NCBI GenBank assembly: GCA_043757545.1
Contig: JAYVPG010000069.1
Location: 9,427 to 73,426, forward strand
Origin: Pseudobdellovibrionaceae bacterium
GTDB lineage: Bacteria; Bdellovibrionota; Bdellovibrionia; Bdellovibrionales; UBA1609
Length of the DNA stretch: 64,000 nt
Reading direction: 5' to 3'
The notes beneath the pieces were generated by a model, which had not been told where the DNA came from, made no database searches, and saw nothing but the letters and a program-made list of their open reading frames with translations. Position numbers and translations under genes: made by a program. Every line of letters begins with the position of its first letter. The first letter of the stretch is position 1. Shown here piece after piece: positions 1 to 60,764 of the stretch.

Positions 1-194
1 AAATTGATTCTTCATCCGCATTGAAAGATGACACCACGACCATGGGCCCAAGCTTGAGCGTCGGATTGCTTTGGCAGTTGACTCCCGCTTTTGCTGTAGG
101 ATTTGAAAATGCGCGCTACTGGGTTTGGTTCTCGAGTGACTACGCAGGCCAGCTGCGCGACGACATGTCGATCAAAGGTCGATTTTCATTCTAA
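1..194 (+). CDS. 3' end of a CDS entering from upstream; probable outer-membrane beta-barrel protein C-terminus
   Basis: The frame is open from the window edge to TAA at 192-194. The translation ...GFENARYWVWFSSDYAGQLRDDMSIKGRFSF* has an alternating aromatic/hydrophobic pattern and a terminal Phe, like an OMP beta-signal. It is absent from the ORF track because it is truncated. Confidence 0.4.
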   Translation, partial: IDSSSALKDDTTTMGPSLSVGLLWQLTPAFAVGFENARYWVWFSSDYAGQLRDDMSIKGRFSF

Positions 195-198
195 GAGT

Positions 199-2022
199 TT
201 AAGCGGCCCGCTTCAGGTTGGCGGTCCAATCCGTAAGGCGTGAGAGCACGCTTTGCGGAGCTTTTTCGAACGCCACACCATAGGCTTTGTTGGCCGCAGA
301 CCATACCACTCGACCTGCGACCTCGACTTTTTCTTGCCCGTCGGGCGAGGAAATGCAAAGCGTGACCAGTCCGCCATCTTGCAGGAGTGCACTCGTATTG
401 ACTTGCGCGCCTCCGAGCGAGAGTGAGCTGACTGAACCGACCAATTCACGATCGCCGACGCTAATTCGCACATCTGAGTTGATCGCAAAGCGCTCGTGCA
501 TGCGCCGATTTTTCGGATCACGCATGCGCACCGAGAGTAAAATCGCGACAGGCAACAACAACAAGACAACGACGACTGAAGCCGTACCGAACGGTGGCTC
601 ACCGTTCTCCGCCAGCGCATTCACTGTTCCACAACCACCGCCACCGGCGATGTTCGAGGCCAGCTCCCGATCCGCTTGATAAGACATGGTGTAAACGGGT
701 TGCGAAGTATCCACTGATGCCGTTTTTGAATAGTTCACGGCATTGTTGGAGTTCAAACGGCCACCGCTAGAGACTTTTCCGTTGAGTTGAGTGATGGCCA
801 CAGTTTGCGCGAGCAAAATCGCGCGCATTTGATGGGGCAACATACTGGGCGACTCCACTTTCATTTGCGCGGCAGTGCCCGAAATAAAGGGAGCCGCCAT
901 ACTGGTGCCCGACGAGGTCCCAAAAGTGTTATTAGGAATCGTACTTAATATATAAACTCCGGGGCTACCGATATGTACCGAAGTCGAACCATAGTTTGAA
1001 AACGAAGCGAGATAGTCATAGTCGGTTGTCGCCGCAACTGAAATCACGTTGGGGACATCGTAGTTTGCAGGATACATTGCCGTTTGATCGTTGCTCGCTC
1101 CGTTGTTCCCTGCCGCCACAACAAAGAGCGCACCTTTATTGTAAGAATATGCGACGGCCTCATTCAAAGCGGCACTATAACTTGGACCACCCCATGAATT
1201 ATTGATGACCGACGCTCCGTTGTTCGCGGCGTAATAGATCGCGCGGATCGCGTTCGAAGTCGTACCGACACCTGAGCCATTTAAAAACTTCAACGGCATA
1301 ATCTTGATCTTCGCTTCTTGTAGCGGAGTCGTATAAATATTTTGGTCGATACTTAAGATAATCCCGGTGACATGGGTTCCGTGATTGTCGTCGTCGTACA
1401 TCGTTGGAGAATTGTCGACAAAGTTCCAGCCGTGGATATCGTCTATATATCCGTTGCTATCATCGTCTATTCCGTTGCCCGGAATTTCGCCGGGGTTAGT
1501 CCACAAGGCCTGTGTGCCTGTGATCACAGAGTGATTGGTATCAAGGCCCGTGTCCACGACGGCGACGATAGGCTTCACTACAGGCACACCGCTACTCGAT
1601 GACCAGACCGATTGAACTCCTATATTTGCGCTGGTCGCTAGATACGCCGACTGAGATTGCACCGCGGCCGCATGTATTTCTTCGCTGCTAAACGTTTGCT
1701 GGATTCCAGTATCGGCGGTTTTATTCAGAATGTAGTTCGGTTCGGCATAGAGAACGTTGGGATCGTGCTTAAGGTCCGTGACTGCCGCCTCTACTGATTG
1801 GCCCTTTTTTAGAGCGTAATGGTAGAGGGACATTTTCCCCCAGGAATTCTTTAACACCATTTCTTTGTCGGATTGAGCTTTGCCCATGAAGGCATAGGAC
1901 TCTGCAGATCCTTTTTGACTCTTGAGTTTGACGATAACTTCGCCTGGAACGTAATCTTGCGCAGACGCCATCGAGCCGACAAAGGCCAATAGCAGTCCTG
2001 AAATAATTGATCGCAAGGTCAC
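199..2022 (-). CDS. Secreted subtilisin-like serine protease (peptidase S8) with C-terminal TM helix and PilZ-like cytoplasmic tail
   Basis: Signal peptide MTLRSIISGLLLAFVGSMASA. S8 motifs: VVDTGLD (Asp), HGTHVTG (His), NNSWGG (oxyanion Asn), GTSMAAPF (Ser). The C-terminus has GGGGCG, then helix VVVVLLLLPVAILL, then RMR, then a tail of about 105 aa carrying RRMHER (RxxxR) and SLSLGG (DxSxxG-like). GTG start with GGAGG upstream. Confidence 0.85.
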   Translation of the reverse strand: MTLRSIISGLLLAFVGSMASAQDYVPGEVIVKLKSQKGSAESYAFMGKAQSDKEMVLKNSWGKMSLYHYALKKGQSVEAAVTDLKHDPNVLYAEPNYILNKTADTGIQQTFSSEEIHAAAVQSQSAYLATSANIGVQSVWSSSSGVPVVKPIVAVVDTGLDTNHSVITGTQALWTNPGEIPGNGIDDDSNGYIDDIHGWNFVDNSPTMYDDDNHGTHVTGIILSIDQNIYTTPLQEAKIKIMPLKFLNGSGVGTTSNAIRAIYYAANNGASVINNSWGGPSYSAALNEAVAYSYNKGALFVVAAGNNGASNDQTAMYPANYDVPNVISVAATTDYDYLASFSNYGSTSVHIGSPGVYILSTIPNNTFGTSSGTSMAAPFISGTAAQMKVESPSMLPHQMRAILLAQTVAITQLNGKVSSGGRLNSNNAVNYSKTASVDTSQPVYTMSYQADRELASNIAGGGGCGTVNALAENGEPPFGTASVVVVLLLLPVAILLSVRMRDPKNRRMHERFAINSDVRISVGDRELVGSVSSLSLGGAQVNTSALLQDGGLVTLCISSPDGQEKVEVAGRVVWSAANKAYGVAFEKAPQSVLSRLTDWTANLKRAA

Positions 2023-2120
2023 GTATCCTCCGTATTACATTCTGGCCGCGTGTACTTATAATCTTATCGGACGAAGGTCCTAATGACTTAGACAATTTTC
2101 TCAAATTCCAACCTTGAACC

Positions 2121-2164
2121 AGAGAAAAATAGAGCGTCTCAGGGTGAGACACTCACTCTGAGAC
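2121..2164 (-). terminator. Candidate rho-independent terminator downstream of the ppiD-like gene
   Basis: GTCTCAG-G-GTGAG / CTCAC-T-CTGAGAC hairpin at 2136-2164 (12 bp plus one mismatch, 3-nt loop). On the minus strand it is followed by GCTCTATTTTTCTCT. Confidence 0.5.
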
Positions 2165-2216: not shown

Positions 2217-3749
2217 TTACTGGAGGATTCTGGGATTGCGCTGCACGGTCGATCCCGCTTCGACTTCCTTCGACCAAGTCTCAATCAGGTCCGAGGATTT
2301 GCGGAAAGCAACAGCTCGATCCGCTCCTTCTGAGGCCGGAGTGGGGGCCGCGGCTTGCTTCCAAGACAAAACGTCGACAATCAAATGACGATCGCGTGTG
2401 CTGATGAGCGTGGGAACAATTCCACCTTGCTTGCCATGCTTCATAACCGCAGCAATCACGTCCTGGCTATCACCGAGCTTGGGAACGGCAGGCGATGAAA
2501 GATCGAACTCGCCACTCTCTTGCCATTTTAAGCCGGCCTTAGCGATCCACGCCTCGACGTCTTTGCGACTCGATTTTTCGAGCATACCGCGCGCTTTTGC
2601 CAGAACTTCATTTTGCTTGGTGCGCAGGATCAGCTTACGCGCAATATCGTTTTGTACAGATTCAAGCGAGGCCATTCCACCTGATGTTTTCTTTTCGGAA
2701 AATATCAAATGATAGCCAAAATTCGTTTTCACCGGCTCGCTGATTTGGCCCGATGACAGCGCGAATGCTGCCTTTTCAAACTCAGGGAGCATCCGGCCTT
2801 TTTCAAACTCACCCAAATCCCCGCCTTTGGCTTTACTGCCGGGATCGTCGCTATTCTGCATCGCAAGTTTGGCAAAATTTTGCGCCGTAGCTTGTTTTTT
2901 TAGGGCCGTCGCGACTTTCAAAGCCTCGGACTCGGTTCGTTTTTCATCGACTCGGATCAGAATATGACGGGCATGAACCTTCTCATTACTGGTGAATTCG
3001 ATAGGGTTGGCTCTATAGTAGGAGTCGATCTCCGACTTACTCACTTTTAGAAACTGCGCCACCTCTTCATCGCTCAAAAATCCCGGGCGTTTAAGATCGT
3101 CGCCAGCGATTTCGACGTACCGTAGGTTCACCTTCTGCGAGCTCAACACGCGCGCGCGACTCAGCTCCTCTTGGGTTGGCGCGGCGGAACCAACAAAGAG
3201 ATCTTGTAACTTCTGCCCGACGATTTGCTTACGAACTTGGCGTTCAAAGTCCTCTGTGCGCAGATTCATATTTTGCAAAAACCCGCGATAACGCTCTTTC
3301 ATAAAACGACCGTTTTCCTGCAAAAAACCAATCTGTAGAATGTAATCGCGAACTTCGGCATCAGTCGCCGCTACTCCACGCTTTTCAGCGGCCTGAAAAA
3401 CCACCTCACCCATGATCAGCTCTTCTAAAGCTCGGCGGCGTAACTCTTGCGAAAACGCCCGGCGCTGCGCCTCTGGAAACTGATCAAATCGCATCTTGGC
3501 ATTCTTTTCGATGCTTTCAACACGGCCACGATATTCGGCCAGTGAGATTGCAGAATCATTGACGACCGCCGCGACCGCACCTGTATTTTGCCCGTACCGA
3601 TCGGGATTCAACCCCATTAACGCAAAGACGACGATAATTGCCGCAAACATGGTCACTGCGATCCAGTGCTTCATGGTTTTTTTAGTCTTTTTGGTAACGG
3701 CACTTGAGGCTTTGGTCGGCGCGCTCGATTTACGAGTTTTGTCGTTCAT
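2217..3749 (-). CDS. ppiD: PpiD-like periplasmic chaperone / parvulin-type peptidyl-prolyl isomerase, membrane anchored
   Basis: The ORF-track 601-aa ORF is trimmed to Met92 (MNDKTRK...). The Lys-rich tail is followed by TM anchor HWIAVTMFAAIIVVFALMG and a SurA-N-like region. Parvulin core: ARHILI...GGDLGEF...FGYHLIF. Confidence 0.8.
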   Translation of the reverse strand: MNDKTRKSSAPTKASSAVTKKTKKTMKHWIAVTMFAAIIVVFALMGLNPDRYGQNTGAVAAVVNDSAISLAEYRGRVESIEKNAKMRFDQFPEAQRRAFSQELRRRALEELIMGEVVFQAAEKRGVAATDAEVRDYILQIGFLQENGRFMKERYRGFLQNMNLRTEDFERQVRKQIVGQKLQDLFVGSAAPTQEELSRARVLSSQKVNLRYVEIAGDDLKRPGFLSDEEVAQFLKVSKSEIDSYYRANPIEFTSNEKVHARHILIRVDEKRTESEALKVATALKKQATAQNFAKLAMQNSDDPGSKAKGGDLGEFEKGRMLPEFEKAAFALSSGQISEPVKTNFGYHLIFSEKKTSGGMASLESVQNDIARKLILRTKQNEVLAKARGMLEKSSRKDVEAWIAKAGLKWQESGEFDLSSPAVPKLGDSQDVIAAVMKHGKQGGIVPTLISTRDRHLIVDVLSWKQAAAPTPASEGADRAVAFRKSSDLIETWSKEVEAGSTVQRNPRILQ

Positions 3750-3882: not shown

Positions 3883-4731
3883 ATGAACTTTTTCACCTTT
3901 GATTTGCGCAAAGTCTTCCTGATTGTCGCCTTGGTCGTCGTCCCCTTGATGGCCATTAACATGCAGCGGAAATCAGAAGAAGAACTCTGGTTTACCAAGC
4001 CCTTCACCTTTGCTGGAGCCATGATGCAGCGGAGCTTCTCGGGTTTTAGCTCAGGGGTGCGCGGGACGACGGCGCTTTATATGGATCTGATCAACGTGAA
4101 AAAGATCAATCAAGACCTCAAAAAGCAGCTAGCAGAACTCAACGCCCAGCTGGGGGCCATGACGGAGCTCAAAATGGAAAACGAGCGGCTCACGCAGCTG
4201 CTGGGATTCCACCACGCTTCGAAAATGACGCTTTTGGCGGCTAGAGTCATTGCGCGCGATCTGCTCCCCGATCACCATACAATCACCGTCGATCGCGGAC
4301 TTTCCCACGGCGTGCAAAAGAACATGGCCGCTCTGACTATCGGTGGCGTGATTGGCTACACCTTCCGCGTCGAGAACGACTCTTCGCAGATTTTACTGCT
4401 GACTGACCGCTATGCGGTTATTGACGCGATTGTCCAACGATCGCGTGCACGGGGTCTTGTGGAGGGATTTAGTCGAAGTGACACCAAACTGCGCTACCTG
4501 AAGCGCAGTGACGACGTCAAAGTGGGCGATCTAGTCGTCACTTCAGGCCTGTTTAATATTTTTCCTAAGGGTTTTCCCATTGGAACGGTGACCTCGATCG
4601 ACAAGAGCAAATACGGGATGACCCAAGAGGTAGAAATCAAACCGGCCGTTGAACCGCTGAATTTAGAGGAGCTCTTTATTGTCCTCAACGCCAATCACCA
4701 GGATATGACTCCGACTGGAGCCGACGAGTGA
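3883..4731 (+). CDS. mreC: Rod shape-determining protein MreC
   Basis: The ORF-track 411-aa ORF is trimmed to ATG 3883 (MNFFTFDLRK...), because the upstream part overlaps the divergent ppiD-like gene. N-terminal TM, coiled-coil LKKQLAELNAQLGAMTELKMENERLTQLLGF, and a C-terminal beta-rich domain. It sits upstream of mreD-mrdA-rodA. Confidence 0.9.
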   Translation: MNFFTFDLRKVFLIVALVVVPLMAINMQRKSEEELWFTKPFTFAGAMMQRSFSGFSSGVRGTTALYMDLINVKKINQDLKKQLAELNAQLGAMTELKMENERLTQLLGFHHASKMTLLAARVIARDLLPDHHTITVDRGLSHGVQKNMAALTIGGVIGYTFRVENDSSQILLLTDRYAVIDAIVQRSRARGLVEGFSRSDTKLRYLKRSDDVKVGDLVVTSGLFNIFPKGFPIGTVTSIDKSKYGMTQEVEIKPAVEPLNLEELFIVLNANHQDMTPTGADE

Positions 4732-5267
4732 AGATCCCATGGTATTGGCTTTTGGGATTGGGCCTGATGACGATGACGGCCTTGATTCTGGCCGCCGCGC
4801 AGACCTCACTTTGGTTTCTAGTGTTTGGGCGATTTCCCTCACCGATGTTTTGGTTGATCATTCTTGTTTACGTCAGCGTGACACGCCCTCTTTGGGAGGC
4901 CACTCTGGTCACCTATTTACTTTGCGCAGTCACTGCCCCTTATACGGTTTTTCCTTTTGAGGCTCTGCTGGTCTACTGCCTAAGCCTGATGGTACTGATG
5001 GTTTTGATTCGCGAGCGCGTGTTTTGGGGCGGGCCCACTTATTTTATGTTGATGGTTGCGGCAGCTTCAGTTTCAGCACCAGTTTTATTTTGGATCACAT
5101 CGCGAGTCATCGACAAAAGTCCGCTCTCGTTCCCAAATATTTTTGATTGGCTGATCTCGGGTTGTTTAACTACGCTGTGCTGCTTACCTATTTATCGATT
5201 GTATCAGTGGTTTGATGTCATAGCCTCGCAAGATGCGGGCGCGGAGAGTCGCGTGGGCCCGCGATGA
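4728..5267 (+). CDS. mreD: Rod shape-determining protein MreD (polytopic membrane protein)
   Basis: 179 aa with multiple hydrophobic helices. It has 4-nt overlaps with mreC and mrdA, the canonical mreCD position. Confidence 0.8.
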   Translation: MKIPWYWLLGLGLMTMTALILAAAQTSLWFLVFGRFPSPMFWLIILVYVSVTRPLWEATLVTYLLCAVTAPYTVFPFEALLVYCLSLMVLMVLIRERVFWGGPTYFMLMVAAASVSAPVLFWITSRVIDKSPLSFPNIFDWLISGCLTTLCCLPIYRLYQWFDVIASQDAGAESRVGPR

Positions 5268-8846: not shown

Positions 8847-8977
8847 TGGGGGGTCTCCTTAAAGGGACATGTCTTTGGTCCTGACCCTAAAATACAACCG
8901 GCGGCTCCTCGGGAGCAAGTACAGTTGAATTGACCCTATGCATCACTAGCCCGACGTCCGTCAACTTAGAGGGCGAA

Positions 8978-10861
8978 ATGACCGATGAGAAGCTAATGAT
9001 TAAGTCTCGCATAAATGTCCTTATTATCGAAGACGACCTTACTCAGGGCCGAGCCCTACTTGAGGCCTTCAAGCGAGATGGCTACTCCGCTGTGCTCGTC
9101 GATTCGACCGTTAAGGCCCTTGCCGTCACTCAACGCACAGAATTTCAATGCATGATCGTGGATTGCATGTTGCCGACAATGAACGGTGTCGATTTGATCC
9201 TCGAGATTCTCCCCACACTTCCCCATAGTCCGAAGATCTTTTTGGTCACGGGAATCTACAAAGATCGTAAATTCATCAAAGAGGCGATGGCTCGCACCAA
9301 GGCCGAGTCCTTCTTCATAAAGCCGTTTAAAGTGGAAGATCTACTCGCACAAATGGAAGAGGTCTTTGCGGAAAGCGAAGACCCTGAACGGCCGACGGCA
9401 ATTGGGCTCTATGGCGCCGATTTGATGATAGATCATGAGCTTGTGGGCCTGATGGCCAAAGAGTCCACGCTGCACGCGTTTCATTTGCCGAAACTTTACC
9501 AGTGCATTCAAGACACGAAGTTGAGTGGAGCGCTCACCTTGATTTCCGCAATCGGTGAAATCAGTTCCGTTGGCTTTTTTGAAGGGCGAGTTTTTTCCGT
9601 AAAAACTCCGGACAAAGAATCCTTTTTTGGCGGAATAGCCGTCAGCCAAGGTTTCGTCTCACCCGAAGAAGTACTTGAAGCATTAAAACATCCGGACGGA
9701 AAGCTACTCGGCGAAAAATTGATTGCCTCAATGACTCTAAGTCCCCATGCCATTCAAGTTATACTCGAGGAACAACTCGCCTTGCGCTTAAGTCAGACAA
9801 TCCGAAACGATGTTGTCACCTTGCAATGGGAAACGCAGAAGCCTGCGAAACCAAAACACACTCTTGCCAGCAAACGGCTCGATCACTTGATTGAAGATTG
9901 GTTAGAATCAAAAATTACTCCAGACTGGTTGAAGTCGACTTTGATGCAATGGGGAGCTTATCTTTTAGAAGGTGAATACCACCCGCGCATTCACGGGTCA
10001 TTTACCATTGGCGAAGTTTTTGGCGACCTCGGTTTCCAATTGGACAAAGATCTCGTGCCGATGTTTAGAGCATTGATTAAAAATCTGGCCTCTATCGGAG
10101 CCCGCGGCGACAGTTCGCAAGACTTTACGTTTTTGGAATCGCGACTCGACAAGATGGCCGAGGACTTCCAACATCAAAACTACTTCCAGTTTCTCGGCGT
10201 TGGCGAAAAAGCTCAGCAGCGCGAAGTCAGCAAAGCCTTTGAGGGCTTCAAAGAGTCCTTCAATCCCGAAAGTCTTCCTGCCGCCTGCCCTCCGGAAGTG
10301 GTTGTGAAATGCAATTCTGTTTTTGTTATGCTGCAAAAGGCCTACGACACGCTCTCCAATGAAGTCGAGCGCCAACGCTATTTAAATCTGCTGCAAAGTC
10401 GTCGTTCTCAGGAAATGTTGGACGCTGAACCTATTTTTCGAGCCGCTATCACTGAAGTCACCAGTGGCCATGCAAAGGACGCTGCAAAGAAGTTCCAGGC
10501 GCTGATCGATCGCAAACTTGAATTTAAAGATTTGCGCGCTTACCGCATCTGGGCCGGAATAAAATGCGATCGAACGTACTCAGCGATTCGTTTGGATCAA
10601 ATTCCTCCAGAAGAACGCCATTCAGCCCCCTATATGATGGCAAAGGGTGTATTCTACCGTCGCAACGGTCAGTACAAAAAAGCTCTCGACTCATTCCGCA
10701 CAGCGCACATTTTGGATCCTCGCCTAGAGATTGCCAGACATGAGTTAAAACAGCTGGGTTCTGAACTCCAAAAAAAGAAGGCGCAAAATCGCGAGATGTT
10801 CAACGAAGTCACCAGTGTCTTTGAGAATCTTTTCGGTCGATCTGCGCGTCGAGGCGCTTAG
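8978..10861 (+). CDS. Response regulator with receiver, DUF4388/PATAN-like, degenerate J-like and TPR-like regions
   Basis: ATG 8978 is preferred over TTG 8930. The REC domain looks intact (IEDD, VDCMLP phospho-Asp, LVTG, IKPF). DUF4388-like segment: LSGALTLISAIGEISSVGFFEGRVFSV. J-domain-like segment YFQFLGVGEKAQQREVSKAFEGFKESFNPE has NPE where HPD is expected. The C-terminus is helical and TPR-like. Confidence 0.7.
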   Translation: MTDEKLMIKSRINVLIIEDDLTQGRALLEAFKRDGYSAVLVDSTVKALAVTQRTEFQCMIVDCMLPTMNGVDLILEILPTLPHSPKIFLVTGIYKDRKFIKEAMARTKAESFFIKPFKVEDLLAQMEEVFAESEDPERPTAIGLYGADLMIDHELVGLMAKESTLHAFHLPKLYQCIQDTKLSGALTLISAIGEISSVGFFEGRVFSVKTPDKESFFGGIAVSQGFVSPEEVLEALKHPDGKLLGEKLIASMTLSPHAIQVILEEQLALRLSQTIRNDVVTLQWETQKPAKPKHTLASKRLDHLIEDWLESKITPDWLKSTLMQWGAYLLEGEYHPRIHGSFTIGEVFGDLGFQLDKDLVPMFRALIKNLASIGARGDSSQDFTFLESRLDKMAEDFQHQNYFQFLGVGEKAQQREVSKAFEGFKESFNPESLPAACPPEVVVKCNSVFVMLQKAYDTLSNEVERQRYLNLLQSRRSQEMLDAEPIFRAAITEVTSGHAKDAAKKFQALIDRKLEFKDLRAYRIWAGIKCDRTYSAIRLDQIPPEERHSAPYMMAKGVFYRRNGQYKKALDSFRTAHILDPRLEIARHELKQLGSELQKKKAQNREMFNEVTSVFENLFGRSARRGA

Positions 10862-11574
10862 GCCTTTTTCTTATTAAAAAGATGTTCGACAAAGGCTTTG
10901 CGCTCACGTTCCAGATCCGCAAGATCCGTCGTCGCTTCCAGTTTGCGCAGATTGCGCACCTGCTCAGCGACCTCTTTTACCGCAAAGCCGTGCTCTTTAG
11001 GTGGAGCTTCTTTTAAAAACTTAGCATAACGATCTTGGCGCTCATTCGCGGGCATCGTCGAAGATTTAAGCGTGGACTCAGTCGCTCCACCGCCAAAGTT
11101 CCCGCCATGGCCGGCGACCTTTTCCATAACGGCTTCAGGCGGCATATTTGTTTTGAGTGTGCGAATCTTTTCTTCTTCGATTTCTTTCAATGAAAACTTA
11201 GAGAGCTTTTCCTGAAGGACTTGTTTATTCAATCCTGCCACATCCGCAATCATGTCCAAAAGGTTCGCCGCCGTGACCGGGCTTTCGAGCCAACCTGCCA
11301 CGCTATGGTCAGCCTCAACGGCCGAGCCCGCGGCGCGGATCAAAACCGTATGCGGTAGGCCACGCACTCGTCGCAATCCTCGACTGAGATCAAGGCCCTT
11401 CACGCGTTTTCCATGCGCAGTCATCACCACGACGTCAGGATTCATGGTCAAAACACTGTCTGAAAAAATGCGCGGATTTTGAATGCCATCGACGTCAAAG
11501 CCGATTTTCTTCAAGACCGTCTGAAGAAACATCAATTCGCCATAATCTTCGAGTACCATTAAAACGCGTAACAT
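10858..11574 (-). CDS. Receiver-like (probable pseudo-receiver) domain protein
   Basis: The N-terminal ~115 aa has the CheY-like pattern MLRVLMVLEDYGE...PDVVVMTAHG. It has Thr where the phospho-acceptor Asp is expected and EDY instead of DD. The C-terminal half is charged and helical. Its stop codon overlaps that of the convergent regulator gene. Confidence 0.45.
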   Translation of the reverse strand: MLRVLMVLEDYGELMFLQTVLKKIGFDVDGIQNPRIFSDSVLTMNPDVVVMTAHGKRVKGLDLSRGLRRVRGLPHTVLIRAAGSAVEADHSVAGWLESPVTAANLLDMIADVAGLNKQVLQEKLSKFSLKEIEEEKIRTLKTNMPPEAVMEKVAGHGGNFGGGATESTLKSSTMPANERQDRYAKFLKEAPPKEHGFAVKEVAEQVRNLRKLEATTDLADLERERKAFVEHLFNKKKA

Positions 11575-11682
11575 CTTGATTTTAGTATCGCTTCGCCAGG
11601 GCAGGGGGTCAACTCGACCTGGACAGTAGGCCGAAACCTGATATGCTCTTGGCCGTTAGCCCCAAAAAAGGAATGTGAGTCC

Positions 11683-12600
11683 ATGGCCGATGCGATCAAT
11701 AAAACTCGTCAAGAAACCGTTGAACTCCCCGTGCGTCGCTTTGTCGTCGAGGGCGGAAGAACTCCCATCGTCGTTGGCGACGGCCAGCCCCTTGCGCTAA
11801 TCGCTGGCCCTTGCGTGATCGACTCGAAGGAGCTGATTTTCGAGGCGGCCAAACGCCTGGTCGAAATCACTCAGCGTGTGGGCATTGGTTTGATTTTTAA
11901 ATCGTCTTACGAAAAAGACAATCGTGGCAGTGAGAAGAACTGGCGCGGTCCGATGGCCAATGAAGGATTAAAAGTTTTAAAAAGCGTACGCGAGGAGTTT
12001 GGCTGCCCGGTCTTGACCGATGTGCATCGCCACGAAGACATTCAGATGGTCGCCGATCATGTCGACGTTCTGCAAATTCCGGCTTACATGTGCCAGCAGA
12101 CTTCTTTGGTCTTGGCCTGCGGTCAAACGGGCAAAGCGGTCAACATCAAAAAAGGTCAGTTTCTGGCTCCTGAAACTATGGACAGCGCGGTTAGTAAAAT
12201 TCGCTCAACCGGAAATAAAAATCTTTTACTCACTGAGCGCGGCGCTTGCTTTGGTTACAATCGTTTGGTCGCCGATATGCGGTCGATTCCCGTGATGCAG
12301 ATGCTTGGAGCTCCAGTTTGTTTTGACGCCACTCACGTGGTTCGTCTGTATGGAATCTCCAGCTCGGATCCCGCCGGGGGCGAGCCGCGTTTTGTTCCGC
12401 ATCTAACCTTGGCCGCAGTTGGCGCCGGTGCCGATGCTTTGTTTCTGGAGTCCCATCCTCGCCCGATGACGGCGAAGTGTGATGCGGCCTCGCAACTCCT
12501 GATGGACAACTTGGAGCCGTTGCTAAAAATGGCAATTGCAGTACGTAAGGCCATTGGTTCACCGGAGAATGTTGGGACATTCAACGCTAAGCACCTCTAG
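11683..12600 (+). CDS. kdsA: 3-deoxy-8-phosphooctulonate (KDO-8-P) synthase
   Basis: LIAGPCVIDSKE, FKSSYEKDNRGS and QIPAYMCQQTSL are typical KdsA blocks. Confidence 0.9.
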   Translation: MADAINKTRQETVELPVRRFVVEGGRTPIVVGDGQPLALIAGPCVIDSKELIFEAAKRLVEITQRVGIGLIFKSSYEKDNRGSEKNWRGPMANEGLKVLKSVREEFGCPVLTDVHRHEDIQMVADHVDVLQIPAYMCQQTSLVLACGQTGKAVNIKKGQFLAPETMDSAVSKIRSTGNKNLLLTERGACFGYNRLVADMRSIPVMQMLGAPVCFDATHVVRLYGISSSDPAGGEPRFVPHLTLAAVGAGADALFLESHPRPMTAKCDAASQLLMDNLEPLLKMAIAVRKAIGSPENVGTFNAKHL

Positions 12601-14651: not shown

Positions 14652-16019
14652 CTATTCGGACAAATCCAGGTCCGGACTATCGCCGATCGGCTCTGGCTCA
14701 AGCGGGGCTTCGAAATCTTCTTTGACCGGAGTGTTGAGATCCAGATCCTGACTCTTTTCCGCACGCGATTGTTGCTGAGCTCGGTCACCCTGCAAAACGC
14801 TATCGACCGCACTTAAAACAACAGCCGTTGCACAATGATTATCGACTTTAACGACTTTCACCGAGCCCGCAGGCTTAGTTGAAAAAGCCACCGCAGTTCT
14901 GGGCTCACGTAGCACGCGATCGGCAAAAAGGTCCAAGAGTTGCCCAGTCGCAACACCATCTTGACTGCCCTTATTTAGAAAGACGATGTCACCCGGACCA
15001 TAGAGCGCACTAGTGACATCTTTCGAAGACCCGATGACCTGAGCAACAACGCTACCACTTGGGCCACTCGCACTCAAATCCACAAAGTCCACTTTTCCAG
15101 GAACCAAATCGTAGTTTAAAATACTGAGACTGAACGCATGAGTAATCAATGCACGATAGACATCGAATTTCTCTTTGTCCGGTCCGTTCTTGACGGGTTC
15201 AGCGGTCTCAACAATCTCAATATCGCCAAAAACTTCAATAAAGCGGGCTTTGATGTCCCCTTCGACCTGATAATTGAGCTTATGCAAAATTCCGTGATCC
15301 TTCACGATCAACATTTTTTGCCCTATATGTCCCATTCCCTTTTTGATTTTAATAAAAATATACTGCATCGCCACTGGCAGACCCGACTCGTTTTCGTTTT
15401 CCAAAAAGGAGCCATATGCATCCAACTCACCATCTTGCACGTATCCGCTGACGAAGATTTTATCTGGAATACGATTTCGCTTGAACAACAGTTTGCTATC
15501 GTCAATTTCGAAATCATCCTTCCTGCTGTGGTAAACCTCTTGCCAGTCCGGAAAGCTGCTGGGAATCTTCAAGACCGGGCGAGGCGAAATTTCAGGTGGT
15601 GGCACTTCAACCTGGGATCCGCCGGGGACCTGCGCGGCCGCGAGCTCAATACCACTGTCGTCACTTTCCGAAAACCGAAACGCGGGGGTCTGATCTTCTG
15701 AGCCCAGCATCAGCTGAAGAGTGTGACCCGGTCGAACCAAATGCGGATTGGTGATGCTTTTATTCTGCGCCCAAACCTTTGGCCAATAAGCGCCGTCACC
15801 ATAGAGCATCTGGCTTAATCCCCAAAGACTCTCGCCTTTTTGCAGACGATAGCTCTCCATCAAACCTTCCGATGGAGTTTCTGCCCGTTGTTTAGGGTCG
15901 ACCACTTGAACATAATTGCGATGCAGCTGATCCTCCAAATTTAAATCCGGAGGATCGAAATGAGTGGCCCACACGGGAGCCGCAACAAGGCCTATGAAAA
16001 CGAGACTGTATTTTAGCAT
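14652..16019 (-). CDS. Secreted LysM domain (peptidoglycan-binding) protein
   Basis: Signal peptide MLKYSLVFIGLVAAPVWA. LysM motif: YRLQKGESLWGLSQMLYGDGAYWPKVWAQNKSITNPHLVRPGHTLQL. The tail is acidic. Confidence 0.7.
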   Translation of the reverse strand: MLKYSLVFIGLVAAPVWATHFDPPDLNLEDQLHRNYVQVVDPKQRAETPSEGLMESYRLQKGESLWGLSQMLYGDGAYWPKVWAQNKSITNPHLVRPGHTLQLMLGSEDQTPAFRFSESDDSGIELAAAQVPGGSQVEVPPPEISPRPVLKIPSSFPDWQEVYHSRKDDFEIDDSKLLFKRNRIPDKIFVSGYVQDGELDAYGSFLENENESGLPVAMQYIFIKIKKGMGHIGQKMLIVKDHGILHKLNYQVEGDIKARFIEVFGDIEIVETAEPVKNGPDKEKFDVYRALITHAFSLSILNYDLVPGKVDFVDLSASGPSGSVVAQVIGSSKDVTSALYGPGDIVFLNKGSQDGVATGQLLDLFADRVLREPRTAVAFSTKPAGSVKVVKVDNHCATAVVLSAVDSVLQGDRAQQQSRAEKSQDLDLNTPVKEDFEAPLEPEPIGDSPDLDLSE

Positions 16020-24751: not shown

Positions 24752-25828
24752 TTGGGAAGGGTGAGCCGCGCTTTGGAAACGATCAACGAACTCGAGCTCC
24801 GCAAATTTTTAAAAGCCAAGATTGCGGGGCAGGAACTCGTCAGTAAAATTTTGCGACGTTTGGTCGATCCATCATTATCATGGGAAGAAAAACGCCCATT
24901 TTGGAATTTTCTTTTTAACACCGGGCGTGAAGACACGTTATGTGCGGCACTTTCCCTGACCTTGGAATCTAAACAGCGCATTCCCTTTGATCTGTACATC
25001 GCAATGTGTGCTCGCGCGAATCTGCAGCCCAACAAAAGTATCTTAGAGAGTTTAATCAAGGGGTTAAAAAAACAAAAGGCCCATGAAGATATTCTGGCGT
25101 GCAAGGGTTGGGACAAATGGGACCCGCGGTTTGGGCGAGCGCGCGCCGAACTGCTCGAACAAAAACTCCGCGAGCAAAGACAGCAAAAAGAAAACTTAAA
25201 AGAAAAATTTCATTTTCTAAAAAATCAACGGATGACCGAGCAGGCCGGCCGTGTTTTACGACGCATGCTCGAACTTTACCCAGATGACGGCGAACTCAAG
25301 GCCTTCAAGAGTGAGTTCGATGAGCAATGGGCGCGCGACGTTCTCTCCACTCATATTTCAACACTGCAATCCGAAGGGATGGACCGCACACAAACTGAGC
25401 CGTCGAGCGGTGACAAAGAGATGATCCAACGCTTGATGATCGAGGGCGAAAAAATCTCGTTCGAGCATCGTGCGTTCGCGTTCGATTTAGCCGTCGCCTT
25501 CTGGTTCATGGAAGACTATAATCACGCTCTGGATATTTTGGCGTGGGCCGAAATCGGCAGTTCGTCGGATTGGATGCGTGCTGAACTTTTATTTGCCTCT
25601 CGGCGTTTTTTAGAGGCGCTTGAGCATTTGAATCAAATGGAGATTAAATACATCGAAGATCCCGAGACCACGTTCTCAGTCTCCTACCTACGCGCGCAGT
25701 GCCTATGGGCTCTTGGACAAAAAACGTTGGGCCTTGAGATCATGCAAAGCATCGTGCGAGTGCGCTCCAACTATCGTTCGGCTCACGCGTTGATTCTGAA
25801 GTGGGCGGAAGGCGTCAGTTGGGAATAA
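24752..25828 (+). CDS. Hypothetical all-helical protein upstream of tamB-like gene
   Basis: Long ORF with coding-like composition. Helical-repeat character with a TPR-like C-terminus. No catalytic motif recognised. The start is uncertain (TTG 24752 or GTG 24761). Confidence 0.5.
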   Translation: MGRVSRALETINELELRKFLKAKIAGQELVSKILRRLVDPSLSWEEKRPFWNFLFNTGREDTLCAALSLTLESKQRIPFDLYIAMCARANLQPNKSILESLIKGLKKQKAHEDILACKGWDKWDPRFGRARAELLEQKLREQRQQKENLKEKFHFLKNQRMTEQAGRVLRRMLELYPDDGELKAFKSEFDEQWARDVLSTHISTLQSEGMDRTQTEPSSGDKEMIQRLMIEGEKISFEHRAFAFDLAVAFWFMEDYNHALDILAWAEIGSSSDWMRAELLFASRRFLEALEHLNQMEIKYIEDPETTFSVSYLRAQCLWALGQKTLGLEIMQSIVRVRSNYRSAHALILKWAEGVSWE

Positions 25829-28800
25829 ATATCACCCGACGCACGGTCGCTAAACTTATTCTATTGGCGGTTTCCGGCTTCTCCTTAGGCTTTGCCTACA
25901 ACTATCACCTGCCACGCATTGAAGCCTATTTGCTCGGTGAAGTTGAACGCGTGAGCCAGGAACGCTCTCCGATTCGCATTTGGGCTCAACGTTTACATTT
26001 TCACTTGGTCCCATTGGGCGTCAGTCTTGAAGAGGTTCGTCTTCTCGCGCAAGCGCCGTTGGATAAATATCTAGCTCCCGCGACGTTGCACGAAGTCGGC
26101 GCGCATTTGGCGCTCTTGCCGCTGCTGCGCGGAGAATTGCGTTTGAGTCAGGTGTATATTCGAAACTCTGAACTCAATTTGTTTTTGCGTTCCGATTTAT
26201 TTACCGATAAAAAAGGTCCGGAAAAGTTACGCCTTGATTTTGACCAACTCTACCAGCTCCCCATCGACGAATTCTTGCTCGAAGACGTGCAGATTCAAGG
26301 CCGTCTTGAGCCACAGAACGTAGTGTTTCGGGTTACAAATCTAAATGTCACCATTGAAAATCGCTACCGCTCGATTTTTGTCGAAGTGAACGCACCGCGA
26401 GTAATGGTGAAACCGAGCGGGCCAGTGCATCCTCTGAACGCTCAACTGGAACTTCGCACTCTAATTGAAGCCAGTGAAATGCAAGTTTCTGCGTTCAAGC
26501 TTAAAGCCGGCGATAGCTTTGTCGTGGCGAGTGGCAAATTCAATGGTGACCTGGCAGTCGGACGTTTTGATACGGGGATGTTTGAAGCGCGATCCAGACT
26601 GGATCTGGAGGATATCAATGCTTGGGAGAATATTTTTTATCTCAAGCCTCGCATTCCCCGATTGGAAGGCCGTGCCGAAATGGATCTGGGAATTGAGCTG
26701 CAAAAGAAGAAAGGCTACAAGTTCGACGTCGACGTGAAGACTACGGGAGTCGAAATAGATAAATATACCGTTGGTCAAATTCAAGGCCATCTCACCTCAA
26801 ATTTAAAATCGATTTCCAGCGATGTTATGCATTTGTCGAACAATTCAGGAAAAGTAGATCTAATAAAATTAACTATCAATCTTGAACCTAAGACGACGAT
26901 TTCGGCGGTCGTGAAGGTTCCGGGGATCGAAGTGCACGAGCTACTCGAGAACCTCGACGTCAAACATGTCCCTATTATGGTTCCTATCAAGGGCGAAGCG
27001 GAGTGTCTTGCGGTTCTTGGGGATTCACCTGAGGTGAACTGCAGCGGCGGGTTTAGTGCGGCAAAAATTCATGTCGACACAGGTCGTCCCAAGTTTTCAA
27101 CGATCGTCGAGGCCGTCGACGTACGCGCGAAAGGCCAGGTTAAAGTCACGGCAAAAGACGTGAGCTATAAGGGCGATCTGGCGCTTGGAAGAAATTCTGC
27201 CGGGCACTCCGATGGGGTTATCAACTACGACAAGGGATTTAAAATCAACTACCAAGCTGACAACTTGGATTTCGCCGAGGTGAAGAATCTCGTGAATCTA
27301 AAATTCGAAGGTGCGATGAAAATAAACGGGAGCACAACGGGAACTTCACATTGGGCGACCATCGACATGAGCATCGACGGCAAAGACCTCTGGCTCGAGG
27401 ACTATCCGCTTGGCTCTGCGACTTCAAAAGTTAACTACAAGGCCGGTCATTTGAATTTCAGTGCGCTGCAGGGGCAATTTGAAGTTACCCGCTATACAGG
27501 CCAGGTGGATTTGGATCTCGATAAGGATCGTATTCGCATGAGTGGTCAAATTCCGTTTATGGACCTTAAAGACGTGCAAAGTTTATTTAAACGCAAAGTC
27601 ACGCTACCTATTGCGATGTCGGGAACCGGAACTGGTCGACTTGAGGCTGAAGGACCGTTGCGTTTTCGCGATATGAGCTACGACTTTCGCTCCAGCTTCT
27701 TTCGCGGACAAATGGCTGGCGAGTCGTTCGATGAGTTTGTCTTTCAGGTCAAAGCCAAAGATGGATTGGTAAAATCGGAAAAAATCACGTTGTCTAAATC
27801 GAGTGGGGTTGTCGACGTCAAAGGTCAGATTACGCCCAAAGGAGAGATGGACTGCGTCGCCGTCGGCCGCAGCATGCGCCTTGAGCAATCGGAAAATATT
27901 TTGTCCATGGGTCTCGACTTGCAAGGCCTAGCCGATTTCACCGTTTTGGTGCGCGGCCAACTTCCCCATCCGCGGGTCGAGCTCAACGGGCGACTGAGCA
28001 AAGTGGTACTCGGTGACATCGCCGCCGAGGACTCGGTGTTCAAATTGAATTTTCTAGATGATCGCATGGAGGGTTCGGGTCAGTTTTTGGGCACAACTCT
28101 GGTCAGCGACTTCACGTTTCCCTATACGTCAGAAGCCCCGTTTCGTTTTAAATTAAAAACCAAAAAATGGGATTTCATTACGTTATTTTCTTTGCTCTCC
28201 CGATCCGCCCGACAAATCGACTTTAATACCTCTGTAACCATGGACGTCAACCTCAGCGCGGATCACGGCGGACTTTGGGCATCGAGTGGACGCGTGGATC
28301 TGTCGGAATTCGTGATCCGCAAGGGCAGCAAAAGTATGGCGGCTGAAAAGCCAATGATCTTTATCGTTAAGCAGGGCGTGGTGAACTCCGACAATAGCGT
28401 GATCTCCGCCGGTGACAGCTATTTGAAACTGGATGTCGCAGGCCTGACCAAAAATGCGCTGAATGCCTCGCTCAATGGCAAAGTGGATTTAAGTTTACTG
28501 GGCCTGTTCACGCCCTTTATTTCAGATCTGCGTGGCAATATGGCCGTCTCGATGGACCTGAAAGGGACAGCCGAGAAACCATTTGTCAGTGGCTCGGCCT
28601 ATATTGATCGCGGCTACGCCAAATTTTCCGATTTTTATCATCCCGTCTCGAACGTTCGCGCCGATATTTTATTTAACGACAATCAAATACTTTTGAATAC
28701 CATTCGCGGAGATATCGCCGGCGGAAAACTTTCCGGAGACGGCAAAATCACTTTTTCAGGAAAATCGCGACCCATTGATATTAAAGGCTCCTTCAGCGAC

Positions 28801-29814
28801 GTGAAACTCAATATTCCAGACGGCTTTCACACGCAAGGTTCCGGAACGGTGGCCATTCGTGGCGATGCCTTTCCCTACGTCATGGACCTGACCTATGACG
28901 TGAGCGGAGGCGAAGTCGTCTCGGAGTTTGGGGAAAACTCTTCAGGCAACTCGTCGGTAAAGGCAAGTGCATTTTTACCTCACTTTTTAGATCGCGAGAC
29001 TTTTCATCCATTTGATTTTTTACTCGATATCGGTTTAAAAAATCCAATTCTGGTGAACAATTCGCTAGTTCAGGCCTCGTGGACTGGACACATTCGGGCC
29101 AATGGAACTCCCGATCACCTGCTGCTCAATGGCTCACTCACTCCGGTCCCTGGTGGGAAGGTCTTTTTCAATGATGTCGCGTTCGATATTGGGTCGGCTT
29201 ATGTGGAATACTCGGGAAACCCGCCCGGCGATCCCAAAATTTATCTGACTGGAACTGCGCATGTGATCGAAAACGTAGTCGACGACAAGGGGGCAAGTGC
29301 CAACCAGTATGACGTGAGCTTGCTGGTTCAAGGACATGCGCAAGATCCACAGTTGAATTTGACCTCGCAGCCTCCGCTCGCCCAACGAGAAATCGTTTCA
29401 CTGCTCGCACTCGGAGTCACCGGTGCAGTTAGCGAGGAACGCAAAACCGGTGAGAATCAAACGGCAAACACATCTGCGGCGCTCGGCGCGGCCATTTTAA
29501 AAAAGGCCGGTGGCAAACGCGTGAAGGAATCATTCGGCGTTGACGTCAAACTGTCTTCGTCCCAATCCACAGTCGACACTGCTGCTTCTCCAAAAGTCAC
29601 TTTAAGCAAGCAGTGGACGCCAAAATTTGGCGCATCGGCATCGAGTACCCTCGAGTCAAATCCCAACAACAATGTGAAGCTCGAATACAAAATGAATAAG
29701 AGCGTTTCAGTGATCGGCTCATGGGACGGTCGAGAGACCCTGCATGACCAACAAAAAGATACGACTAAAAATATTTTGGGTCTAGACTTACAATACAAGG
29801 TGCCTTTTAAGTAA
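25801..29814 (+). CDS. tamB: TamB/AsmA-like translocation and assembly module protein (DUF490 C-terminus)
   Basis: 1337 aa. N-terminal anchor VAKLILLAVSGFSLGF, then a long beta-rich body. The C-terminal block YDVSLLVQGHAQDPQLNLTSQPPLAQREIVSLLALGVTG is typical of TamB. An Omp85 gene follows directly. Confidence 0.8.
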   Translation: MGGRRQLGINITRRTVAKLILLAVSGFSLGFAYNYHLPRIEAYLLGEVERVSQERSPIRIWAQRLHFHLVPLGVSLEEVRLLAQAPLDKYLAPATLHEVGAHLALLPLLRGELRLSQVYIRNSELNLFLRSDLFTDKKGPEKLRLDFDQLYQLPIDEFLLEDVQIQGRLEPQNVVFRVTNLNVTIENRYRSIFVEVNAPRVMVKPSGPVHPLNAQLELRTLIEASEMQVSAFKLKAGDSFVVASGKFNGDLAVGRFDTGMFEARSRLDLEDINAWENIFYLKPRIPRLEGRAEMDLGIELQKKKGYKFDVDVKTTGVEIDKYTVGQIQGHLTSNLKSISSDVMHLSNNSGKVDLIKLTINLEPKTTISAVVKVPGIEVHELLENLDVKHVPIMVPIKGEAECLAVLGDSPEVNCSGGFSAAKIHVDTGRPKFSTIVEAVDVRAKGQVKVTAKDVSYKGDLALGRNSAGHSDGVINYDKGFKINYQADNLDFAEVKNLVNLKFEGAMKINGSTTGTSHWATIDMSIDGKDLWLEDYPLGSATSKVNYKAGHLNFSALQGQFEVTRYTGQVDLDLDKDRIRMSGQIPFMDLKDVQSLFKRKVTLPIAMSGTGTGRLEAEGPLRFRDMSYDFRSSFFRGQMAGESFDEFVFQVKAKDGLVKSEKITLSKSSGVVDVKGQITPKGEMDCVAVGRSMRLEQSENILSMGLDLQGLADFTVLVRGQLPHPRVELNGRLSKVVLGDIAAEDSVFKLNFLDDRMEGSGQFLGTTLVSDFTFPYTSEAPFRFKLKTKKWDFITLFSLLSRSARQIDFNTSVTMDVNLSADHGGLWASSGRVDLSEFVIRKGSKSMAAEKPMIFIVKQGVVNSDNSVISAGDSYLKLDVAGLTKNALNASLNGKVDLSLLGLFTPFISDLRGNMAVSMDLKGTAEKPFVSGSAYIDRGYAKFSDFYHPVSNVRADILFNDNQILLNTIRGDIAGGKLSGDGKITFSGKSRPIDIKGSFSDVKLNIPDGFHTQGSGTVAIRGDAFPYVMDLTYDVSGGEVVSEFGENSSGNSSVKASAFLPHFLDRETFHPFDFLLDIGLKNPILVNNSLVQASWTGHIRANGTPDHLLLNGSLTPVPGGKVFFNDVAFDIGSAYVEYSGNPPGDPKIYLTGTAHVIENVVDDKGASANQYDVSLLVQGHAQDPQLNLTSQPPLAQREIVSLLALGVTGAVSEERKTGENQTANTSAALGAAILKKAGGKRVKESFGVDVKLSSSQSTVDTAASPKVTLSKQWTPKFGASASSTLESNPNNNVKLEYKMNKSVSVIGSWDGRETLHDQQKDTTKNILGLDLQYKVPFK

Positions 29815-33461: not shown

Positions 33462-33589
33462 GCTTTATACCTTGGCCTACATTTCATCTAGTGCGAACGA
33501 ATTTTACACGCAAGTTTAACCACACCCTTAGAATAAAGGGAAGCCGAGTGCCAGGAAGACGCTCGACCGATCTCCAGGAGGGATTTTTT

Positions 33590-34456
33590 ATGCGCCGGCT
33601 GCTTGGTTCGTTGAGCCTACTAGGCGCCCTCTCACTCTCGCTTCATCTCGCTTTGGCCACGGAACGACCCAAGGTTATCTACGGTAAAGACAATCGACTC
33701 GACTACTACCAAGTCAGCGAAGACCCTATCAAACGGCTGGCGGATTCAACCGTTGCCCTGATTCGCGCTGCGGATTTAAGTACCATCGGGTCCGACACGG
33801 GAATTCACACTGTACCCTACGGGAGTAAAAACGCACTTTGCTCAAGTGAGCCATTTTACAATCAAGGAACGGCCGCCAATTGCTCTGGATTTCTGGTCTC
33901 ACCCGATCTCGTTGTCACTGCCGGGCACTGCATGTTCAGTCAAACTCAATGCGACGAAACTCGTTTTGTCTTTGGCTTTCAAATTCAGAAAGAAAACATC
34001 ATGCCGACATCTGTTCCGACCTCTTTGGTTTTCAAATGTAAAGAGCTGGTGAAAACGACTTCGCGGGTGAAGGATGATGATTTTGCAGTGATCCGCTTAG
34101 ATCGGCCAGTGACTCACACGCTCCCACTTCCCTATCGACAGATTGGTTCGGTGGCAGTCGGAGATAGTCTATCGGTGATCGGATATCCTTATGGACTGCC
34201 GGTGAAGATTGCCGGAGGCGCACAAGTGCGAGCGCTTCAGGCAAAATATCTAACTGCAAATCTTGACACCTACAATGGAAACTCGGGTTCGCCGGTGTTC
34301 AATGCGGTCACTGGAAATGTGGAAGGAATTTTGGTCAACGGAGAAAAAGATTTTCAACTGCAAAATGGCTGCTATGTCTCAAATCTTTGCCCCGACGACG
34401 GCTGCAAAGGCGAAGACGCGACTCTGATTGAGCGCGTCCTACCATTCTTAAAATAA
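33590..34456 (+). CDS. Secreted trypsin-like serine protease (S1 family)
   Basis: Trimmed to ATG 33590, with AGGAGGG upstream. Signal peptide MRRLLGSLSLLGALSLSLHLALA. Catalytic triad context: VTAGHC, DFAVIRLD, GNSGSPV. Confidence 0.85.
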   Translation: MRRLLGSLSLLGALSLSLHLALATERPKVIYGKDNRLDYYQVSEDPIKRLADSTVALIRAADLSTIGSDTGIHTVPYGSKNALCSSEPFYNQGTAANCSGFLVSPDLVVTAGHCMFSQTQCDETRFVFGFQIQKENIMPTSVPTSLVFKCKELVKTTSRVKDDDFAVIRLDRPVTHTLPLPYRQIGSVAVGDSLSVIGYPYGLPVKIAGGAQVRALQAKYLTANLDTYNGNSGSPVFNAVTGNVEGILVNGEKDFQLQNGCYVSNLCPDDGCKGEDATLIERVLPFLK

Positions 34457-50220: not shown

Positions 50221-50299
50221 ACGAGAATGACGTCATACGCAGAGGCCTAAAAGAGCTCCGCATTTGACATTTCATTCCCCCAGTCTGGATAATATCCAA

Positions 50300-53166: not shown

Positions 53167-53181
53167 TGGCTCCCCTTATGT

Positions 53182-60760: not shown

Positions 60761-60764
60761 GGGT

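Follow-up and report, generated by a model that had tools for sequence, protein, structure and literature searches.

The gene considered here, from a Pseudobdellovibrionaceae bacterium, occupies positions 199..2022 of the minus strand of the window (the whole stretch of DNA analysed, 64,000 nucleotides long), with a GTG start codon at 2022-2020 and its stop codon at 199-201. It is complete and encodes 607 amino acids, in which the list of open reading frames (ORFs) and Pfam matches place an S8 subtilase, a single transmembrane helix and a PilZ domain, in that order; it is also the sole long ORF spanning 199..680, an interval corresponding to its 3' portion (approximately residues 448-607). The overall best explanation, to which we would assign a probability of roughly 0.6, is that the product is a membrane-anchored subtilase with a cytoplasmic PilZ domain responsive to cyclic dimeric guanosine monophosphate (c-di-GMP).

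The protein begins with a predicted signal peptide (residues 1-21; 1960..2022, minus strand, as are all features within the gene), recognizable by R4, a hydrophobic core and A-S-A before Q22; in the AlphaFold2 (AF2) model of the full-length protein, a helix at residues 2-17 falls within it. This is followed by a Fervidolysin_NPro-like subtilase propeptide (residues 19-96; 1735..1968; Pfam 4e-10), which is covered by pro-subtilisin structures in Foldseek searches, suggesting that the protein is made as a zymogen. The catalytic domain (PF00082, Peptidase_S8; residues 151-407; 802..1572) scores 172.5 bits against a cut-off of 21.8 (1.6e-50); D157, H217, S374 and the oxyanion residue N306, in the catalytic order Asp-His-Ser, are invariant in the alignment of 44 orthologs on which the residue conservation figures given here are based. 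AF2 confidence (predicted local distance difference test, pLDDT) exceeds 90 across this domain, which has the subtilisin alpha/beta fold, and the nearest solved structure found by Foldseek is the collagenolytic subtilase deseasin MCP-01 (3vv3; 40% identity, TM 0.84, E 1.7e-29). The top NCBIfam match is to T7SS_mycosin (TIGR03921), at 103.4 bits far under the cut-off of 278.75 bits.

Beyond the protease, there is only one internal Kyte-Doolittle peak (2.75), at residues 480-498 (529..585), coinciding with an AF2 helix at 478-501 that contains a near-invariant proline, P491, found in 43 of 44 orthologs. No lysine or arginine occurs in the 15 residues preceding the helix and six occur in the 15 following it, a pattern of charge and hydropathy repeated in all 44 orthologs. 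The charged residues form a basic cluster, delimited by K/R count and conservation, which runs into the RRxxxR motif of the PilZ domain (R499...R506-R507-xxx-R511; 490..528), 8-12 residues past the membrane. Because of the hydropathy and the positive-inside charge distribution, the protein is predicted to be a type I inner-membrane protein, N-out and C-in, with the protease in the periplasm and the PilZ domain in the cytoplasm; this predicted topology fits a PilZ domain that serves as receptor for a cytoplasmic nucleotide. The architecture and topology of the fusion are, in our judgment, very probably correct.

Three approaches, namely hidden Markov model (HMM), predicted fold and motif alignment, show the tail to be a genuine PilZ domain. 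The Pfam PilZ model (PF07238) matches residues 505-599 (226..510) at 9.5e-15 and 55.2 bits (gathering cut-off, 22.5), over profile positions 1-99 of 102. An AF2 model of the tail alone, built from an alignment of 52 diverse tails, has a mean pLDDT of 90, with the helix at 478-501, six beta-strands and a C-terminal helix at 590-600. When this model was compared with the PDB by Foldseek, the top 31 matches were all PilZ structures, mostly c-di-GMP complexes (best E 3e-6, probability 1.0), among them MotI (5vx6), Alg44 (4rt0), 4xrn, VCA0042 (2rde), BcsA (4hg6), MapZ (5xly) and YcgR (5y6g). In these respects a previous reading of the DNA, made from the letters alone (the sequence-only reading), is borne out: the signal peptide and complete S8 catalytic set of the 607-residue protein, the quoted motifs with their spacing, the hydrophobic helix, the basic cluster, the PilZ nature of the tail, and the placement of protease and PilZ domain on opposite sides of the inner membrane all agree with the results above. 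Its description of the protease as extracellular should be replaced, since the predicted topology is periplasmic and anchored to the inner membrane.

Both ligand motifs of the PilZ domain are recognizable, the second in altered form. RRMHER occupies residues 506-511 and is followed by F-A-I, so that R506-R507-MHE-R511 and the next three residues give the pattern RxxxRhxh; SLSLGG, at 533-538 (S533-L-S535-L-G-G538; 409..426), begins 22 residues past R511 and has the form [S/T]hSxGG rather than [D/N]hSxxG. All 44 orthologs have R507, R511, S535, G537 and G538, and 40 of them have R506; the h residue at 534 is always I or L. At position 533, 37 orthologs have Ser and seven have Thr, neither being the Asp or Asn of the canonical PilZ class; across approximately 150 family members, Ser accounts for about two thirds and Thr for about one third. 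The serine remarked upon in the sequence-only reading is thus present, not as a one-off substitution but as part of a family-wide Ser/Thr state. Alignment of the family profile with VCA0042 pairs RRxxxR with QRRKEPR, and position 533 with the D of DLSRSG. The canonical residue is found only in divergent relatives (DISAGG at locus L070, DISTSG at L072, and N in P0225), indicating that the PilZ tail descends from a canonical binder and that Ser/Thr was fixed in the main clade.

In solved complexes, the D/N of the second PilZ motif contacts guanine. Could the domain therefore be degenerate, no longer binding c-di-GMP but serving as a cytoplasmic protein-protein adaptor which, for example, places the protease at a pole or beside a machine? 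Such a role would have its models in P. aeruginosa PA2960 and in those PilZ proteins of Xanthomonas that do not bind the ligand, and adaptor PilZ domains without ligand binding are documented (10.1101/814665). The fixation of the D/N to S/T change in the main clade is consistent with this, as is a plain sequence search, in which the nearest PDB chains are non-binding Xanthomonas PilZ domains, weakly matched (E ~0.005); in the structural search, however, canonical PilZ domains with bound ligand rank at the top, well ahead of the Xanthomonas type. Non-binders also typically lose the RxxxR loop, whereas here both RRxxxR and hSxGG, along with their hydrophobic h positions, are invariant. In P. aeruginosa PA2989, which has Ser at the D/N position, c-di-GMP binding has been demonstrated experimentally, the one precedent for the Ser variant, and PilZ domains within fusion proteins keep their binding (Galperin and Chou, preprint 10.1101/814665). 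Degeneration to an adaptor thus seems unlikely, and binding of c-di-GMP by the tail, with Ser/Thr replacing Asp/Asn, seems probable. Conservation is also informative: pairwise identity among the orthologs is 0.69 for the PilZ domain, 0.70 for the catalytic domain and 0.70 for the GCGxV region that precedes the helix, but 0.33 for the helix itself and 0.35 for the adjoining spacer. With conservation equal to that of the enzyme, and well above that of the helix and spacer, the tail is under equally strong selection, which speaks for a function maintained by it.

The fusion is widespread among relatives of the source organism, and its observation is far beyond chance. All of the best 120 full-length homolog clusters (53-100% identity), from Bdellovibrionales metagenome bins, have both S8 and PilZ domains, and more than 150 protein clusters share the conserved tail. 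An exhaustive search of representatives with the tail gave 209 matches at E up to 1e-3, of which about 45 are 596-680 residues long with the tail at the C-terminus. Domain content was checked in ten of these representatives, nine of them having S8 + PilZ, and in ten further matches (nine short and one full-length), where nine again had both and the tenth consisted of the tail region only, so that each short match extending beyond the tail was a truncated piece of this fusion; a word-index protein search with the tail alone returned truncated fragments only. This PilZ subfamily therefore appears, from the sequences collected, to occur only fused to S8. A scan of species-representative genomes by full-length alignment found the family in the cultured strains B. 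bacteriovorus Bd16, Bdellovibrio sp. HCB337, Bdellovibrio sp. HCB290 and Pseudobdellovibrio sp. HCB154, and in many Pseudobdellovibrionaceae and Bdellovibrionaceae bins. Two public records filed under unrelated taxa, L065 (titled as a Streptomyces griseus metagenome-assembled genome) and P0086 (named Nitrospira sp.), also contain a Bdellovibrio-type protease gene; its neighbors on both contigs are likewise of Bdellovibrio type, and the taxon labels probably reflect binning contamination of the public records.

A misassembly, frameshift or read-through that joined two separate genes would be another explanation of the fusion. Against this, more than 150 clusters, as well as the complete genomes of cultured strains, contain the same unbroken ORF, and the corresponding B. 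bacteriovorus HD100 gene, Bd2545, has a mapped transcription start site and a protein product detected by 13 unique peptides. No point in support of an artefact was found, and we consider it excluded.

A further feature of the protein is the sequence GGGGCGTV (residues 460-467; 622..645), on the periplasmic side of the predicted helix and an instance of the juxtamembrane motif [GA][GA]G-C-G-[TLM]-V, the pattern seen across 155 family members. G463, C464, G465 and V467 are invariant in the 44 orthologs; C464 is the only conserved cysteine of the protein, with many members having no other Cys at all, and in 153 of these 155 members the motif region holds a single Cys. It is followed in turn by a Gly/Pro-rich spacer of low conservation (8-28 residues), the helix and the basic cluster. 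Cys-type tripartite sorting signals, as described by Haft (10.1101/2023.06.07.544157), consist of an invariant-Cys motif, a helix and an Arg cluster, and this raises the possibility of a cleavable sorting element: a membrane protease would cut near the invariant, possibly modified Cys, and the subtilase would be released, or re-anchored and exported to the surface. A stub of helix and PilZ domain would remain, and c-di-GMP could gate the cut, in which case this would be one specific output of the c-di-GMP-responsive subtilase that we favor, and compatible with it.

Several observations fit such an element. The Gly-rich motif with its single invariant Cys is conserved like the catalytic domain, as the spacer and helix are not, and all three elements of the published Cys-type signals are present and conserved; the near-invariant P491 recalls the invariant Pro in the helix of Synerg-CTERM (10.1101/2023.06.07.544157). 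There are, in addition, three relatives without a PilZ domain, at loci L018 (10001-11518; 505 residues, 58% identical to the window protein), L074 (152-1687) and L075 (10001-11521), and these end a few residues past the helix and basic cluster, the classical place for signals of this kind. L018 is closer to the window protein than is the B. bacteriovorus ortholog, which suggests secondary loss of its PilZ domain. At the same locus, the 3' neighbor (11469-12497) is a convergent gene with a zinc-ribbon and a rhomboid-like region (GASGGISG motif), its position being given both as overlapping the 3' end of the protease gene and as 67 bp downstream. The rhomboid-like neighbor is unique to L018, however, being seen at no other locus, and a Pfam scan of ORFs in the 64-kb window found no CPBP protease, rhomboid or type II secretion component among those scanned. 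Neither the whole protein nor the segment by itself was matched by an NCBIfam CTERM model at E up to 10; the sole CTERM match in the family, of GVDTG_CTERM to L018 only, is sub-threshold, at 13 bits against a 29-bit cut-off. Whereas Synerg-CTERM is described as lacking a spacer between motif and helix, 8-28 variable residues separate the Cys from the helix here, and the Cys-helix-Arg segment is internal, with approximately 105 PilZ residues after it, in nearly all members. The survey of myxosortases does not name Bdellovibrio (10.1101/2023.06.07.544157). The likeness to a sorting signal proposed in the sequence-only reading accordingly holds for composition and for the point at which the three PilZ-less relatives end, but not for CTERM HMM matches, the spacing of Cys and helix, or a cognate sortase-like gene among the scanned window ORFs, and we consider a cleavable element doubtful.

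A lone conserved Cys in the periplasm could be read just as simply as the site of an intermolecular disulfide, giving a covalent dimer; such a dimer might suit a receptor for intercalated c-di-GMP dimers. A more ambitious combination, which we regard as improbable, would be a one-piece switch, in which c-di-GMP bound to the juxtamembrane PilZ domain decides whether the periplasmic subtilase is cut or modified at the Cys of GCGxV, and with it whether the protease stays at the inner membrane or is shed or exported in attack phase. On the same slender odds, the segment would then be a new Cys-type sorting or shedding signal with a cytoplasmic second-messenger checkpoint, and the PilZ-less relatives would represent its ungated form.

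Comparison with B. bacteriovorus offers a view of when the gene may be used. Because of 45% full-length identity with the Bd16 protein (locus L041) and the mgtE and DUF502 genes that flank the protease gene in B. bacteriovorus (Bd2544 and Bd2546, respectively, in HD100), the window gene is identified as the ortholog of HD100 Bd2545 (NP_969350.1; UniProt Q6MK66; 628 residues, "subtilisin like serine protease"). Bd2692 (BspE), a candidate HD100 ortholog guessed by accession arithmetic, was rejected, as it encodes a 53-kDa protein without an extra domain.

The sequence-only reading knew of no description of this architecture, but it is not new: it has been catalogued since 2008, and there are expression data for the ortholog in the model organism. 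"Subt-PilZ" is listed for B. bacteriovorus NP_969350.1 by Tripathi and Sowdhamini (2008; PMC2605481), and Bd2545 was counted among the pilZ genes by Lambert et al. (2010; PMC2797640), who found that its transcript drops on leaving attack phase. Karunker et al. (2013; PMC3627812) mapped an attack-phase transcription start site, assigned the gene a monocistronic transcript and a FliA-type promoter, and chose it as a marker in quantitative PCR. In a 2025 time-course proteome, the protein is of low abundance (13 unique peptides), flat from attack phase to 1 h (~5.0-5.2 log units) and lower at 3-5 h, reaching 3.7 at 4 h, with partial recovery by 7 h (PMC12546842 supplement). No functional characterization of Bd2545 was found in the searchable literature. 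Several features of the family were likewise not found reported: its single invariant periplasmic Cys motif, its two syntenic contexts, the Ser/Thr that replaces D/N in the second PilZ motif across the family, the relatives that lack PilZ and end at the basic cluster, and the conservation of the PilZ domain to the same degree as the catalytic domain.

Sequences upstream of the window gene resemble those reported for Bd2545. A sigma-28 (FliA)-type promoter-like element, cTAAG (2091-2087), N16, CCGATA (2070-2065), is found at 2065..2091 on the minus strand, and a Shine-Dalgarno sequence, GGAGG, at 2027..2031, 4 nt before the GTG codon. The promoter element has the same spacing as the B. bacteriovorus attack-phase FliA consensus, TTAAG-N16-CCGATA (PMC3627812), and matches it at 10 of 11 bases. 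At 37 of 69 orthologous loci, the 260 nt preceding the start codon include CCGATA, as compared with 5% of random windows, and the full pattern occurs at eight of 69, against a background of 0.3%; a scan of the intergenic region for sigma-70 promoters found nothing on the correct strand. Farther upstream, following a ppiD-like gene, a consensus scan detected a terminator-like hairpin (2154-2132) and T-run (together 2122..2154, minus strand), with a 10-pair stem including five GC pairs and the tail TATTTTTCTC. With this hairpin and a separate sigma-28-type promoter between the two genes, and Bd2545 being monocistronic, an operon with the ppiD-like gene is unlikely. Given the promoter match, its enrichment across orthologs, the hairpin and the Bd2545 data, the window gene is, like Bd2545, most probably transcribed on its own, in attack phase and under sigma-28.

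Across Bdellovibrionales, the family is found in two gene neighborhoods. In the first (31 loci, including the window), the order is mreC, a ppiD-like gene and the protease; in the second (26 loci, including B. bacteriovorus), the protease lies between mgtE on one side and DUF502 and a 471-residue protein gene on the other. The ppiD-like gene of the window (SurA_N + PPIC rotamase; 2217-3749, minus strand) is directly upstream of the protease in the same direction, with mreC beyond it and divergent, and this order is kept in the 31 loci even where PpiD identity is only 25-35%. On the other side, a gene for a 170-residue outer-membrane beta-barrel protein (PF13505; partial at window positions 1-190, plus strand; 4704-5216 at locus L001) is convergent with the protease, 3-70 bp from its stop codon, and is kept in at least nine loci at 26-46% identity. 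Homologs of genes flanking Bd2545 (the 471-residue protein, an M17 aminopeptidase and an endonuclease/exonuclease/phosphatase) are found at 50264-54198 of the window, 48 kb from the protease, indicating that the protease gene has changed position between lineages. In Bd16, a stand-alone response-regulator receiver gene of 129 residues (L041, 12027-12416) is found 155 bp downstream of the protease, before mgtE, an arrangement seen at only two loci.

How might such a protein work? In the model that we favor, a Sec signal peptide would send the subtilase zymogen into the periplasm, and a single stop-transfer helix would hold it at the inner membrane, leaving a PilZ domain of approximately 100 residues in the cytoplasm. 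The RRxxxR loop, which would bind c-di-GMP, starts only about 8 residues past the membrane; binding could order this juxtamembrane loop and dock or dimerize the PilZ barrel, and the state of the PilZ domain would then alter the periplasmic protease across the membrane, amounting to inside-out control on a single polypeptide. The protein might change its oligomeric state, with trans-activation of the zymogen as a consequence; it might be positioned differently in the cell; or its GCGxV motif and spacer might become accessible to a protease, with shedding as the result. The protein would belong to the free-swimming attack phase, by way of its own sigma-28 (FliA)-type promoter. Ligand binding and its effect on the protease are the steps that we infer, and for a regulatory effect of the PilZ domain on the protease the odds seem to us about even.

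Several points weigh against this proposal. A single helix transmits conformational signals poorly, and in the full-length AF2 model confidence is low at residues 451-550. The guanine-contacting D/N is replaced throughout the main clade, and the existence of PilZ-less relatives implies that protease and anchor can work without the sensor. The neighborhoods, finally, are of two unrelated kinds, with no conserved functional partner and no diguanylate cyclase or phosphodiesterase nearby.

c-di-GMP in Bdellovibrio governs prey entry, gliding and growth mode, which makes a tethered subtilase driven by FliA in attack phase a plausible effector of the hunting state. If the tail does bind c-di-GMP and alter the protease, this would be the simplest known second-messenger route to proteolysis outside the membrane, with one chain doing what LapD and LapG do as two proteins. 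The invariant Cys motif and the PilZ-less relatives would, in addition, provide a handle on whether a sorting-type element can come under second-messenger control.

Other genes of the window include some of separate interest. A plus-strand gene at 8930-10861 encodes a 643-residue protein with a response-regulator receiver, a DUF4388-like stretch, a DnaJ J-domain and TPR, an unusual mix of signaling and chaperone domains. Adjacent plus-strand genes for TamB-like (1337 residues) and Omp85/POTRA (953 residues) proteins, at 25801-32676, are probably a TAM-type pair for outer-membrane assembly; near them are genes for a trypsin-like peptidase (33491-34456) and Lon (37502-39895). No Pfam family matched five long ORFs (433-506 residues) at E up to 1e-4: 14652-16019, 34458-35978 and 35933-37297 on the minus strand, and 50264-51700 and 60705-62006 on the plus strand.

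Among known proteins, Bd2545 is the closest counterpart of the window protein, with the same architecture (628 vs 607 residues, ~45% full-length identity as judged through the Bd16 protein), a GGCGxV motif, the helix, RxxxR, [S/T]hSxGG (as TISEGG) and a FliA-type promoter, together with attack-phase expression of Bd2545 itself; it differs in being located between the DUF502/471-residue protein genes and mgtE, whereas the window gene follows mreC and the ppiD-like gene. PA2989 shares with the window protein the Ser in place of D/N in the second motif and is an experimental c-di-GMP binder, but it belongs to the tetramer-forming tPilZ class, has a two-helix insert, and is a soluble stand-alone protein.

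The mycosins of type VII secretion systems resemble the window protein in having an S8 domain that a C-terminal helix tethers to the outside of the cytoplasmic membrane. They lack a cytoplasmic sensor, however, and the window protein scores only 103 bits on their model, against 279, and has no type VII context. With the Cys-type tripartite signals (MYXO-CTERM and relatives), the family has in common the Gly-rich motif with an invariant Cys, the helix, the Arg cluster and the termination of some relatives at that point; it differs from them in having no HMM match, a spacer, an internal segment before a folded domain, and no cognate enzyme identified.

Two systems bear on how the parts might work together. 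In LapD-LapG, of Pseudomonas and others, cytoplasmic sensing of c-di-GMP governs a periplasmic protease across the inner membrane (PMC10333796). The resemblance, which is without homology to the window protein, is of a possible working mode only: LapD-LapG is a pair of proteins, in which a degenerate EAL/GGDEF sensor acts through a HAMP relay on a Cys protease that is sequestered rather than tethered. Alg44, the alginate co-polymerase of P. aeruginosa, has a cytoplasmic c-di-GMP-binding PilZ domain, a single helix and a ligand-dependent periplasmic domain, and its structure (4rt0) is among the best matches to the tail. Its PilZ domain is N-terminal, with the canonical DxSxxG, and its periplasmic part is an HlyD-like membrane-fusion domain rather than an enzyme; by analogy, Alg44 may nonetheless be taken as a precedent for a PilZ domain acting through one helix on a domain in the periplasm.

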